From IMG/VR virus record IMGVR_UViG_3300042922_000827, positions 1-64,000 of that record: a stretch of DNA of 64,000 nt; one strand, given 5' to 3'. Origin of the DNA: a virus. Shown one piece after another: positions 15,706 through 18,249 of the stretch. Within the stretch, counting starts at the first letter, position 1; each line of letters starts with the position of its first letter. The notes beneath the pieces are model-generated. The model saw only the letters and a list, made by a program, of their open reading frames with translations, was not told the DNA's origin and did not search any database. The translations under genes were made by a program, and so were the position numbers.

Positions 15706-15717
15706 TTATATATTATA
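15706..15717 (+). promoter_or_regulatory. Early phage promoter (histidine kinase)
   Basis: TTATATATTATA about 45 nt before the ATG at 15762. Confidence 0.7.
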
Positions 15718-15761
15718 TTAGTAAGAATAGAGAAGAATATAATAAAGGGAGATGCATTTCA

Positions 15762-17501
15762 ATGAAGTTTTGTATGAATTCTGTTAATAAGAAAGTTCTC
15801 ATTGCTGTATGTGTAGTATTTGTAATACCATATATTCTAAGTAGTTTTTATGTAACGTCTTTTATTCAAAATAAGGTAGAGGAGGATTATATAAATCTAT
15901 CTAATGAACAAATGGAAAGAGTTTATACTGCATTGTATTATAATGTAATTGAGCAAGCATCTCAAGCCATAGATGTCTTTTCAGTGAGGAAGGAAACTAA
16001 AAATCTAGTAATGCATATAGGGAATAAAATATACGATCCAAAAGAGCTAGATCCAGATTTATATAGCTATTTGCAAATATATAAAGATGCACGTAAAAAT
16101 TATATAACAGCTATTGCTATCGGAACGAACTTGGGTGGATATTTTGAATGTATTGGGGATAGAAAAGAAGATGATGACTATGATCCTCGAGTAAGACCTT
16201 GGTATATACCGGCAATTAACCAACCAAATCAAATAATAATATCAGATCCATATGTAAAAACAAATGGGCAGTTTGCTATTGCAGTTTCTAAAGCAATAAC
16301 TGGAGATAATAATGAGCCTATTGGTGTAATAGCTATAGGCTGGGATCTTGAAAATTTCCAGAAAGAAATAGAAAGTGTAAAAATAGGCATCAGCGGATAT
16401 ATTATTATATTAGATAAAAATAATAATATAATTACTAATCAAAAAGGAACCGATATAGGAAGACAGCAATTGGACGAACTTGATATGAACTCTGAAGCGA
16501 TTCAGAAAATAGCTGTAAATGATAAAATAAAATATATCAGAGTTAAGACCATACAGAATGAGTGGAAAATAATTTCTATTATTGATAATAATGAAATAGA
16601 CTCGCAAGTATCTATTATAACCAAGTCTATTAAAATAACTTATACCATGACTCTTATTATAATGGCTACAATATTTACAATAATTTATCTTAGATTTTCC
16701 ATTGGTATAAAGAAACTATTAGATGCTGCTTGTTCTATTATAAAGGGAAATGAGGAAGTTCATCTAGATATCGATAGAAATGACGAGATAGGCACAATCG
16801 CCAGAGCATTAAACAAAATGATATTGGAAGTAGAAAAAAGAAATAAGGAGCTATTCAGATTAAATGGATTAAATTTAGTTGGTCAGATGGCTGCTGGGAT
16901 TGCTCATGAAATACGCAACCCTATGACTACAGTTAAAGGATACCTTCAATATATTAGTGCAAAAGAACCAAAATATAAAGAACGGTTTGATATTATGCTT
17001 GATGAATTGGATAGAGCAAACTCAATAATCACAGAATTTCTTTCTCTAGCCAAAAATAAACTAGTTGATCTTAAACCACATAATTTAAATGATATAATAT
17101 TAAATATATCTCCTCTTCTAAAGTCAGATGCTTTAATGCAGAATAAAATAATATTATCACATTTAAATTCTATACCAAAATTAAAAGTAGATGAAAAAGA
17201 AATAAGGCAAATGATTTTAAATCTTGTACGTAACGGTTTAGAAGCTATGGAAGAAAAGAAGACTTTAACTATCGAAACTTTCTTTAAAGTAGATGAAGTA
17301 ATTCTCGCAATAAAAGACGAAGGAAGTGGAATCCCTACAGAAATATTAGATACCATAGGTATGCCTTTTGTTACAACCAAAGATACAGGAACTGGTCTTG
17401 GATTGGCTACGTGTTATAGTATCGCTAGTAGAAATAATGCAACTATTAAAATCAATACTAGTGAAAATGGAACAACATTCTTTATAAAATTTAAATGTTA
17501 A
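15762..17501 (+). CDS. Membrane sensor histidine kinase (TM-dCache-TM-HAMP-HisKA-HATPase)
   Basis: YDPRVRPWY dCache motif; HAMP RNDEIGTIARALNKM; H-box AHEIRNPMT; N-box NLVRNGLEAM; G boxes DEGSGI and GTGLGL. Confidence 0.93.
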   Translation: MKFCMNSVNKKVLIAVCVVFVIPYILSSFYVTSFIQNKVEEDYINLSNEQMERVYTALYYNVIEQASQAIDVFSVRKETKNLVMHIGNKIYDPKELDPDLYSYLQIYKDARKNYITAIAIGTNLGGYFECIGDRKEDDDYDPRVRPWYIPAINQPNQIIISDPYVKTNGQFAIAVSKAITGDNNEPIGVIAIGWDLENFQKEIESVKIGISGYIIILDKNNNIITNQKGTDIGRQQLDELDMNSEAIQKIAVNDKIKYIRVKTIQNEWKIISIIDNNEIDSQVSIITKSIKITYTMTLIIMATIFTIIYLRFSIGIKKLLDAACSIIKGNEEVHLDIDRNDEIGTIARALNKMILEVEKRNKELFRLNGLNLVGQMAAGIAHEIRNPMTTVKGYLQYISAKEPKYKERFDIMLDELDRANSIITEFLSLAKNKLVDLKPHNLNDIILNISPLLKSDALMQNKIILSHLNSIPKLKVDEKEIRQMILNLVRNGLEAMEEKKTLTIETFFKVDEVILAIKDEGSGIPTEILDTIGMPFVTTKDTGTGLGLATCYSIASRNNATIKINTSENGTTFFIKFKC

Positions 17502-17569
17502 ATATTGGAATTTATAAAGTTAAATATGTACCTACATCAATGTGAATATATTGGTGGAGGGGTGTTTAC

Positions 17570-18214
17570 ATGTTTAACTTTATTTTTTTACACAAAGGTA
17601 ATTTAGAAGAAATGCTAGAACTACAAGACAAGATGGTAAAGGTACTTCCTAGAAAAGATTTATATTATGGCGATATGGATCTGATTAATAGGAGATTGGT
17701 TTGTCCAGATTCTGTTATTGGAATGCGAGATGGTGATAAATTAATAGCATTTCATGTTATGGATATACCAATTAGAGAAGAAAATCTTGGGGTCGACTTA
17801 GGATTTTCAGAAGAAGATTTATTACATGTTGGACAGATTGGTCCCATATGCATAGACCCAGAATATCAAGGTCGTGGTATAATGAAACAAATAATTAAGC
17901 CACATCTAGACATATTAAAAGAGACTGGATATCATCATGTATTAGCTACTGTTTCCCCATACAACTATGGGAGTATGAAATATGTTCTTACGCATGGGTT
18001 TTCTCTTATGAAGATTACTGAGAAGTATGAGGGGATGAGTAGAGCAATTGTTCACTTAAATCTTAATCAGGAACATAGATATAAGCATACCAAAGTTTTA
18101 GTACCAAATTATGCTATTAAAACTCAGCTTGATCTTATTTCCAATGGATATTGTGGTCATAGTTTAGAAAGAACAGAAAATGGATTTGATATAATTTACA
18201 GTATTAAAGAATAA
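17570..18214 (+). CDS. GNAT acetyltransferase
   Basis: Acetyl-CoA motif IDPEYQGRGIM; ATVSPYNYGS; no terminator separates it from the kinase. Confidence 0.85.
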   Translation: MFNFIFLHKGNLEEMLELQDKMVKVLPRKDLYYGDMDLINRRLVCPDSVIGMRDGDKLIAFHVMDIPIREENLGVDLGFSEEDLLHVGQIGPICIDPEYQGRGIMKQIIKPHLDILKETGYHHVLATVSPYNYGSMKYVLTHGFSLMKITEKYEGMSRAIVHLNLNQEHRYKHTKVLVPNYAIKTQLDLISNGYCGHSLERTENGFDIIYSIKE

Positions 18215-18249
18215 ATATAAGAGAGTGGCATAATGCCACTCTCTTATAT
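18215..18249. terminator. Bidirectional terminator hairpin
   Basis: ATATAAGAGAGTGGCAT-a-ATGCCACTCTCTTATAT. Confidence 0.85.

Follow-up and report, generated by a model that had tools for sequence, protein, structure and literature searches.

Positions 15706-18249 of the analyzed stretch of viral DNA (hereafter the window: 64,000 nt, i.e. the first 64 kb of the 87,773-bp IMG/VR virus record IMGVR_UViG_3300042922_000827) contain a two-gene cassette, which encodes a predicted transmembrane sensor histidine kinase of the HisKA class and an N-acetyltransferase of the GNAT family. We propose, with a probability of roughly 55%, that early in infection the kinase exchanges phosphoryl groups with the Spo0F protein (or with Spo0A) of its host, and thereby shifts the decision to sporulate. 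A closely similar role had been put forward in an earlier note, prepared from the sequence alone. Its description of a phage-borne kinase that lacks a partner regulator, is preceded by an early motif, carries a sensor motif deviating from the amino-acid type and has a core of the sporulation style was borne out by the analysis presented below, whereas the nutrient sensing, the action on Spo0F/Spo0A, the control of sporulation or lysis timing and the early transcription postulated there still have to be inferred.

The Pfam domains of the 579-amino acid (aa) kinase (dCache_1, HAMP, HisKA and HATPase_c) and two hydrophobic segments, whose positions are given in Table 1, are in agreement with the intact TM-dCache-TM-HAMP-HisKA-HATPase architecture (TM, transmembrane segment) recognized in the earlier note. 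The predicted phospho-acceptor, H382, is invariant in all 10 aligned sequences (the window kinase and nine relatives), as are N487, N491, D519, G521, G523, F536 and G543-G547, which, by our own reading, represent the N, G1, F and G2 boxes of the HATPase_c domain. The open reading frame (ORF), as listed, starts at position 15696, i.e. upstream of the promoter motif; since the homologues align from the Met encoded at position 15762, this ATG is likely to be the start of the kinase gene.

In order to assign the kinase to a functional class, we inspected its DHp specificity residues, located at positions +7, +8, +11, +12, +14 and +15 relative to the phospho-acceptor His (a mapping deduced from the strings in a published table). 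In the table of Davidson et al. (2018; PMC6136694), which covers verified as well as predicted Spo0 kinases, these residues are TAGFQL, TVGFQL, TSGFQI, TGGFQL and TAGFQL in KinA-E, respectively, TTGFQM/L/F in the phosphorelay kinases of D. acetoxidans, and NVSAQV, NISAQL and SVGLQL in the direct Spo0A kinases of C. acetobutylicum. The window kinase and a sensorless core encoded by a related phage (described below) carry TTGYQY, metagenomic homologues TTGYQL/M, and the Pelosinus orthologues TTGFQM. Positions 1, 2, 3 and 5 of TTGYQY are identical to those of the D. acetoxidans kinases, with Tyr at positions 4 and 6. Judged by these residues, the core belongs to the predicted phosphorelay class and not to the direct-Spo0A class.

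The distribution of this type of core in cellular genomes points in the same direction. Almost all of the best 80 genome loci that encode it are from Bacillota, mostly from known spore-forming genera. A separate REC gene is present within 3 kb at only 2 of these loci, an N-terminal fused REC domain at 13 and a more distant REC at 10; at the remaining 55 none was found within 6 kb. Two Pelosinus-family genomes (G011 and G020; loci L143-L171) encode 17 and 13 paralogous cores at 47-60% identity, below which there is a gap down to 34%. All 28 paralogues that were fetched have specificity residues of the same class (T-T/S/V-G in 27 and A-A-G in one; F, Y or L at position 4; Q at position 5 in 26 and R in two), and the exact TTGYQY string occurs in two of them, one per genome. 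No REC was detected within 1.5 kb of any of these 28 loci. By analogy, many orphan kinases with a single specificity code represent the layout of a Spo0 input layer, and the Pelosinus paralogues may constitute a very large putative layer of this kind. The style of the core, as judged in the earlier note, is thus matched by the specificity residues, by the orphan cellular relatives and by the near-complete restriction to spore-forming Bacillota.

The further components of such a relay were also sought. The Spo0A_C domain is present in 14 of the 15 Pelosinus-family genomes. As NCBIfam offers no model singling out Spo0F, a PDB sequence search was used instead, and it identified a 133-aa single-domain receiver of G020 (L174:235-633, G020:C1, minus strand), whose eight best matches are all Spo0F (3e-31), the next natural protein in PDB appearing at 8e-21. 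The helix-1 residues of this receiver (Q, G, I, L, E, V) are identical to those of Spo0F.

A search for a partner regulator encoded by the phage gave negative results. No REC domain (PF00072) was found at E<=1 in the window, in accordance with the earlier note, or in the entire 87.8-kb record (G000), which was also negative with a home-made REC profile. The orphan status of the kinase leans on complete relatives of the phage, because the record covers 36% of its genome (CheckV completeness estimate). In five related phage records (G001, G002, G004, G005 and G007), four of which are 99-100% complete, PF00072 had no match at E<=0.1, with positive controls; the search for a regulator elsewhere in the genome that the earlier note had called for therefore found none in this record or its relatives. 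Spo0A_C was likewise not found in five phage records.

Full-length cellular relatives of the kinase (35-40% identity) were found in Pelosinus, Sporomusa, Propionispora and Azotosporobacter, while the GNAT protein yielded 6 matches in a word search and 2449 representatives in a profile search. Among the latter is a protein from a Pelosinus metagenome-assembled genome, whose contig is as long as that of one of the kinase homologues. In Pelosinus baikalensis, the kinase gene (38% identity over 614 columns) is directly followed by the GNAT gene (32%). Moreover, in this species, in a Pelosinus metagenome-assembled genome and in Sporomusa aerivorans, the pair is followed, on the same strand, by a gene encoding an Asp/Glu/hydantoin racemase. 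GNAT matches are present in 13 of the 15 Pelosinus-family genomes (15 loci in all), and a kinase gene lies directly upstream at 12 of the 15 loci, in 10 of the 15 genomes; the three loci without a kinase encode the most distant GNATs. In a careful tree of 61 kinase cores, a group of 41 (support 90/91) contains the phage clade and all 13 of the cellular operon-linked kinases.

This shared group, together with the conserved cellular gene order, shows that the phage captured an existing two-gene operon, minus the racemase gene, from a Sporomusaceae-like donor. The capture occurred long ago, because the identities have fallen to 38% and 32% and the G+C content is fully adjusted (0.30 in the cassette vs 0.39-0.47 in the cellular loci). 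The kinase-GNAT pairing thus existed in cells beforehand and was not invented by the phage. P. baikalensis also contains a second, decayed copy of the pair (L127:8198-9025; G011:C97), composed of fragments with in-frame stops, in which the C-terminal 64 residues of the kinase are 61% identical to the phage protein. This copy was considered as a link to the host and rejected, as its flanking genes are unlike those of the phage. The automatic JGI name of the kinase of the Pelosinus/Sporomusa operon is 'sporulation sensor kinase E'.

The source of the window is an uncultivated AR9/PBS1-like jumbo phage from soil. This identification is based on (i) the gene content around the cassette (PHROG/Pfam matches to a terminase, a helicase, an RNA polymerase beta-like protein, a DNA polymerase and a tail sheath protein), (ii) the size of the IMG/VR contigs encoding related terminases (184-254 kb, three of them with terminal repeats) and (iii) the nearest terminases of cultured phages, which are those of the Bacillus phages vB_BpuM-BpSp, Goe21, PBS1 and AR9 (38-39% identity). 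The G+C content is approx. 30% throughout the window. Soil-metagenome contigs from three studies, one of which may represent the source sample, contain this stretch or portions of it; a megablast of positions 13000-21000 against the phage collection gave no match, and a tRNA scan found no tRNA genes.

Three independent assemblies tie the cassette to phage genes: (i) IMG/VR contig L005 carries the terminase gene and kinase residues 1-441 (97% identity), (ii) IMG/VR contig L019 carries GNAT residues 82-214 (85%), followed by helicase, RNA polymerase and DNA polymerase genes, and (iii) run X2, which belongs to another soil study, yielded a contig of 4599 nt that covers positions 13000-17158 with 264 differences. 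Misassembly, including the mis-assembled host fragment of which the earlier note had been wary, is therefore excluded, and the cassette is phage DNA.

The cassette is located on the plus strand, opposite to its neighbors, with the terminase gene on one side and the helicase gene on the other. In L007 (terminase 85% identical) and L009 (79%), the closest two of the larger relatives, the helicase-terminase gap is approx. 500-850 bp long and contains neither kinase nor GNAT; because of this, the 2.5-kb cassette is considered to be an insertion in a variable spot. It has the features of a moron or auxiliary cargo, namely a promoter and a terminator of its own, the opposite orientation, and absence from the same locus in close relatives. 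The adjoining region is a hot spot of gene gain and loss. A 201-aa ORF without a family match (positions 18517-19122, minus strand), placed between a 70-aa ORF and the helicase gene, is absent from the sister contig L019 and from the X2 contig (the joint 18471->19134 skips 662 bases).

Comparison with the sister phages revealed purifying selection on both genes. In the 441 codons of the kinase gene that could be compared with L005, 59 differences are synonymous and 14 non-synonymous, and the ratio of non-synonymous to synonymous substitution rates (dN/dS) amounts to 0.052, and to 0.046 for the sensor part alone, with 0.036 for the terminase gene; the GNAT gene has a dN/dS of 0.126 vs L019. Given these low values, both genes are maintained by selection in the phage. 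The two genes are separated by a 68-nt spacer, which contains a strong ribosome-binding site and no terminator-like site, as expected from the statement in the earlier note that no hairpin intervenes. The phage-style terminator that it placed at the end of the cassette was found as a 16-pair hairpin with a T run.

The kinase gene is placed directly behind the motif TTATATATTATA, which the earlier note had regarded as a phage early motif and which is identical to the published core of the AR9 early promoters. The window contains 10 exact copies of TTATATATTATA; when one mismatch was allowed, 20 copies were found vs 9.7 expected, and none of 100 shuffles reached this number. The 10-mer core TATATATTAT occurs 16 times in the 87.8-kb record, and, by our own reading, 13 of these are found upstream of an ORF with the same orientation, the match being extended there to TTATATATTATA-N4-TGAG. 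The early consensus for the injected virion polymerase of AR9 is given as AAATATATATTAT-N6-G(+1) (PMC5312081). The kinase promoter equals this consensus in 10 of 10 core bases (TATATATTAT) and in the 6-nt spacing to the start point; it deviates in the upstream AAA, which reads AAT, and at +1, where A replaces G. Both the motif and the A at +1 are shared by the sister phage L005. In the AR9 study, one early promoter is described as functional despite a deviation at its start point (PMC5312081), and the kinase gene is likely to be transcribed early in infection. An exact match to AACA-N6-TA, a possible AR9-type late promoter motif, at position 15671 was considered as a second promoter and rejected: with 56 matches in the window vs 72 expected, this motif shows no enrichment, and the copy is therefore indistinguishable from chance.

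We also examined how the kinase is represented in related phages and metagenomes. A complete 245.7-kb relative (G002) encodes, at a locus other than that of the cassette (G002:235206-235871; L020:1495-2169), a 224-aa ORF that is 64% identical to residues 355-578 of the kinase. This protein has no membrane, sensor or HAMP part, and its gene is preceded by a terminator and by a separate copy of the early motif, in which +1 is G. A profile that did detect the cellular GNATs found no GNAT of this family in G002. In the tree of 61 cores, the window kinase and the G002 core are sisters (support 100/81), next joined by P0002 (98/80), P0003 (100/91) and P0004/5 (100/95), P0002 and P0003 being full-length metagenomic homologues. 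The simplest reading is that the G002 lineage lost the sensor and the GNAT and kept the phosphotransfer core, which suggests that phosphotransfer activity, and not sensing, may be the indispensable part. The neighbors of the G002 gene have no counterpart in the 87.8-kb record, which begins approx. 8 kb downstream of the equivalent locus; this phage may therefore encode a second kinase outside the sequenced part.

Metagenomic homologues at 62-67% identity, whose kinase and GNAT come from the same source and from equal-sized contigs (3949, 2988), appear on this basis to keep the pair together. A scan of IMG/VR with a core pattern confirmed six loci, two of them in this phage group (L005 and L105); the other four show 46%, 36%, 26% and 42% core identity in their best segments, the last over 38 residues. 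One of the scanned records, a 7.2-kb viral contig (L106; IMGVR_UViG_3300025718_000127), encodes a core with 46% identity and residues TVGYQY on a very long branch. Among cultured and deposited phages, tblastn with the kinase returned 71 records, none of which covers 80% of the query and all of which are below 60% identity; the majority match in the core only and are prophage-like or contaminated, and no AR9- or PBS1-type phage was present among the best 30 of the 71 or in the organism-name tally. When metagenomes were scanned with the GNAT alignment, the only matches were three distant GNATs (26-34% identity), none with a kinase beside it.

The sensor was compared with the dCache_1AA motif, in which, according to Gumerov et al. 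(2022; PMC8915833), Y121, R126 and W128 (plus Y129) bind the ligand's carboxyl group, and Y144 and D173 its amino group; in PctA, both D173A and D173N abolish binding. The window kinase has Y140, R145, W147, Y148 and Y164, with 15 residues between the halves of the motif vs the allowed 13-17. At the equivalent of PctA D173, 29 residues after Y164, as in PctA, it has G193 (GVIAIG), and a Gly is found at this position in 9 of 10 aligned relatives. The alignment thus confirmed the observation of the earlier note that the YxxxxRxW motif and the downstream Tyr are retained and that Gly occupies the Asp position. Because of this Gly at the amino-group Asp position, the sensor is not a dCache_1AA member; its ligand may reasonably be guessed, but no more than guessed, to be a carboxylate that lacks a free alpha-amino group.

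The AlphaFold2 model of the GNAT protein (mean pLDDT 97) comprises a GNAT fold (residues 1-165) and a C-terminal beta-alpha-beta-beta module of approx. 40 residues (176-213). Foldseek returned at least 500 matches at E<=0.001, and among the matches listed all are GNAT-type acyltransferase domains or entries containing one. The structural neighbors (11-20% identity) include (i) the protein N-terminal acetyltransferases RimI, NatC and Ard1 and (ii) amino-acid acetyltransferases, namely YncA and the phosphinothricin/arsinothricin (ArsN) enzymes. The best PDB sequence match is the uncharacterised YqjY (1.5e-9), and the Atlas look-up gave only GNAT clusters without a name. At the level of the modeled fold, an amino acid or a protein N-terminus are both options for the substrate. 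In cells, the gene has a conserved place between the genes for the sensor kinase and the racemase, which points to an amino acid as a possible substrate.

On the basis of these data, we propose the following mechanism. An ancestor of the phage lineage captured an operon for an orphan membrane kinase and a GNAT from a Sporomusaceae-like endospore former and placed it under a putative early promoter of the phage virion polymerase, and strong purifying selection has maintained it since. Soon after injection, the kinase would be made and inserted into the host membrane, where its dCache domain would bind an extracellular carboxylate-bearing compound other than a free alpha-amino acid. The DHp domain would exchange phosphoryl groups with host Spo0F, or directly with Spo0A, so that Spo0A~P would be raised or drained and the infected cell biased toward or away from sporulation. 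As a result, either the phage genome would become entrapped in the spore, or sporulation would be prevented and lysis completed. The GNAT, as the ancestral operon partner of the kinase, was carried along. Our statements on the direction of the reaction (as a kinase or as a phosphatase), on ligand and GNAT substrate, and on host and timing are all inferred. Phage phi29 reads the Spo0A~P of its host. AR9 and PBS1 have been described as pseudolysogenic (PMC5312081), and phi29 is reported to use host Spo0A for its entrapment in the spore (PMC2731898).

Several observations weigh against this proposal. The similarity of the whole core does not single out the sporulation kinases: ZraS (4e-31), AtoS, ThkA, KinB (7e-27) and KinD match alike. 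With the KinD equivalog model NF053867, the window kinase scores 150.2 bits vs a cut-off of 775, in the core only (residues 363-575), far too low for an orthologue of B. subtilis KinD. Tyr at specificity positions 4 or 6 occurs in none of the verified kinases in the table of PMC6136694. The Bacillus-type Spo0B domain (PF14682, SPOB_ab) was found in none of the 15 Pelosinus-family genomes, with a positive control; it may be that the relay of the Negativicutes includes a divergent form of Spo0B, a protein described as hard to detect, for which Davidson et al. used the gene neighborhood (PMC6136694). The Asp/Glu racemase encoded behind the cellular operon hints at an amino-acid-related role rather than one in sporulation. 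A Sporomusaceae-like endospore former is proposed as the host from the origin of the cassette only, and a receiver could lie in the remaining approx. 64% of the genome of this phage. At the promoter, the A at +1 stands against G in 12 other copies, and the AR9 study includes one predicted early promoter silenced by a single-base deviation (PMC5312081); as deviating promoters of both kinds, functional and silent, are known in AR9, early transcription is put no higher than likely. An N-terminal PAS domain is common, though not universal, among sporulation kinases; the window kinase has no PAS domain match, its sensor being dCache_1, and KinB and KinD are also without a 'Yes' in the PAS column of the published table (PMC6136694).

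Within the proposal itself, the kinase and phosphatase directions are about equally open. A possible variant, to which we give a clearly smaller probability than to the proposal as a whole, is that the protein acts as a phosphatase or phosphate sink, which drains Spo0F~P or Spo0A~P and blocks sporulation so that the lytic cycle can be completed. In the H-box of the kinase, HEIRN, the His is followed by E at +1 and by N at +4, which we take to be the HisKA phosphatase motif. KinC, KinD and the PtpA/B/C proteins of C. difficile have been reported as bifunctional, inhibitory or phosphatases (PMC11210211), and phage sigma factors are reported to lower the spore yield (PMC10294663). However, the ATP-binding boxes, which a pure phosphatase would not need, are all intact and conserved, and the sequence is silent on the direction.

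It is somewhat less probable still that the kinase signals to a host regulator unrelated to sporulation, the operon being a metabolic sensing module (e.g. for D-amino or N-acyl amino acids) by which the phage retunes the metabolism or the cell envelope of the host during infection. The racemase gene following the pair in three cellular genomes, the amino-acid acetyltransferases among the structural neighbors of the GNAT, the carboxylate-binding half of the amino-acid motif retained by the sensor, and AtoS and ZraS as the top NCBIfam matches would all fit such a module. It is made less likely by the absence of a regulator adjoining the kinase gene in phage or cell, by specificity residues that match Spo0F-directed kinases and are common to 13-17 orphan paralogues per genome, and by G002, which kept the kinase core and neither the sensor nor the GNAT.

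An extension of our proposal to a ligand-gated decision circuit must be regarded as unlikely. In such a circuit, the GNAT would make or destroy an N-acylated amino-acid-like compound, the dCache domain would read it outside the cell and the kinase would write to Spo0F-Spo0A, so that a virulent jumbo phage could opt for lysis or for entrapment in the spore, depending on a signal released by the infected cells. It would resemble an arbitrium-like means of communication, assembled from the captured input part of a two-component system.

Two further explanations have a very low probability. A neutral passenger without a role in infection, or a chimeric assembly, could be suspected from the close relatives that lack the cassette at this locus and from the variable flank (the 201-aa ORF present or absent between strains), but the three independent assemblies, the fully adjusted G+C content, the dN/dS values of 0.05-0.13, the cassette's own phage promoter and terminator, the pair apparently kept by metagenomic homologues at 62-67% and the core retained behind an early motif in a relative speak against it. 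Equally improbable is phosphorylation of a phage protein with a divergent receiver missed by Pfam: jumbo phages are reported to encode divergent Rec-like domains outside two-component systems (PMC7824862) and most ORFs near the cassette lack a family match, but PF00072 and the home-made REC profile were negative as described above, and native Pelosinus kinases carry identical specificity residues.

The coordinates of the features discussed are summarized in Table 1. A sequence at positions 21453-21493 is 80% identical to the terminator region of the cassette, so that the phage may possess a family of repeated terminators. The terminase gene of the window is a single unbroken ORF; the tblastn matches to the terminases of PBS1, AR9 and Internexus are in two pieces spread over approx. 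3 kb, and the match in one Staphylococcus relative overlies an annotated homing endonuclease, as would fit cultured relatives whose terminase genes are interrupted.

Table 1. Features of the cassette, its flanks and the related cellular loci (window positions unless a locus is named).
Feature	Position	Strand	Basis or remark
Terminase large subunit	13375..15609	-	Left flank of the insertion; PHROG matches
AACA-N6-TA, possible AR9-type late promoter motif, doubtful	15671..15682	+	Exact match
Early-type (virion RNA polymerase) promoter motif TTATATATTATA	15706..15717, predicted +1 at 15723	+	Matches the AR9 core
Ribosome-binding site GGGAG	15747..15751	+	10 nt before the ATG; read from the sequence
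Sensor histidine kinase, 579 aa	15762..17501	+	Pfam, alignment, hydropathy
Kinase, TM1	15795-15857	+	Hydrophobic 19-mer; residues ~12-32
Kinase, dCache_1 region, predicted extracytoplasmic	15858-16634	+	Pfam, residues 136-266; 56.8 bits, cut-off 45
Kinase, TM2	16635-16709	+	Hydrophobic 19-mer; residues 292-316
Kinase, HAMP	16734-16832	+	Residues 325-357; 25.8 bits vs 25, at threshold
Kinase, HisKA	16881-17057	+	Residues 374-432; PF00512, 51.9 bits vs cut-off 26.9
Kinase, phospho-acceptor His382	16905-16907	+	Within HisKA
Kinase, HATPase_c	17190-17495	+	Residues 477-578; PF02518, 64.4 bits
GNAT N-acetyltransferase, 214 aa	17570..18214	+	PF00583 (Acetyltransf_1), 34.4 bits vs 20.7
Bidirectional intrinsic terminator	18215..18249	.	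16-bp stem, 3-nt loop, T runs on both strands
Right flank: 70-aa ORF, 201-aa ORF, helicase	18254..20698	-	201-aa ORF missing from sister phages
Helicase	19109-20698	-	Part of the right flank
Kinase-GNAT-racemase loci	L124:7027-10338; L125:7636-10935; L126:7977-11678		Pelosinus and Sporomusa

Should Spo0F or Spo0A be the target of the kinase, the dormancy decision of the host would be controlled by a lytic-type jumbo phage from the top of the pathway, and this control could be tied to a chemical cue from outside. The full-length sensor kinase and the sensorless core of the sister phages constitute a natural pair for testing. The kinase-GNAT-racemase operon of Pelosinus and Sporomusa is, in turn, a likely input to the little-studied sporulation of the Negativicutes, in which a Spo0F-like protein is present.

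Of the known systems, this operon, itself uncharacterised, is the most similar to the cassette: the two genes, their order and orientation, and the architecture of the kinase are the same, and its kinases have Gly at the D173 position and specificity residues of the same class. The differences concern the sequence (the kinase is 38% and the GNAT 30-34% identical), the G+C content (0.39-0.47 vs 0.30 in the phage) and the setting, as the pair in the phage is enclosed by a promoter and a terminator of phage type and the racemase gene is missing. The putative promoter shares its core and 6-nt spacing with those of the AR9 early genes, and in both phages the motif is intergenic and co-oriented with the downstream gene; it differs in having A at +1, where the AR9 consensus has G. 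KinD also has an extracytoplasmic double-PDC sensor. KinA-E and Dtox_1918 of D. acetoxidans share with the window kinase the orphan status, the HEIRNP H-box and the T-x-G-F/Y-Q-x residues. Unlike KinD and the other Spo0F-directed kinases, the window kinase is a phage protein with Tyr in two of the specificity positions, and it is not a KinD orthologue.

The hijacking of host signaling by captured regulatory genes is already known in kind; the novelty here would be a sensory input kinase of the sporulation-relay class in a phage. Phage-encoded sigF/sigG-like sigma factors and a truncated, receiver-less spo0A are likewise host-derived regulators of sporulation entry (PMC10294663), but they act as transcription factors at or below Spo0A, whereas the window kinase would act above it, at the sensory input. 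The word 'kinase' is absent from the main texts of PMC10294663 and PMC9429907 (their supplements lying outside the search), and the main text of a jumbo-phage survey mentions histidine kinases only to place a divergent Rec domain outside such systems (PMC7824862). In the literature searched, which did not extend to supplementary tables, no phage-encoded sensory input kinase of the sporulation-relay class was found. The nearest published precedent for an orphan sensor kinase carried by a phage is AgrC of the C. difficile phage phiCDHM1, whose agr3 cassette (agrB, agrD and agrC, without agrA) likewise contains a host-derived membrane sensor kinase with no response regulator, and for which the authors predict signaling to a host regulator (PMC4124054). 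phiCDHM1 differs in being temperate, and its kinase, which is of another class and serves peptide quorum sensing, is accompanied by signal-making genes (PMC4124054), while the window originates from a lytic-type jumbo phage and encodes a dCache/HisKA kinase of the predicted sporulation-input class.

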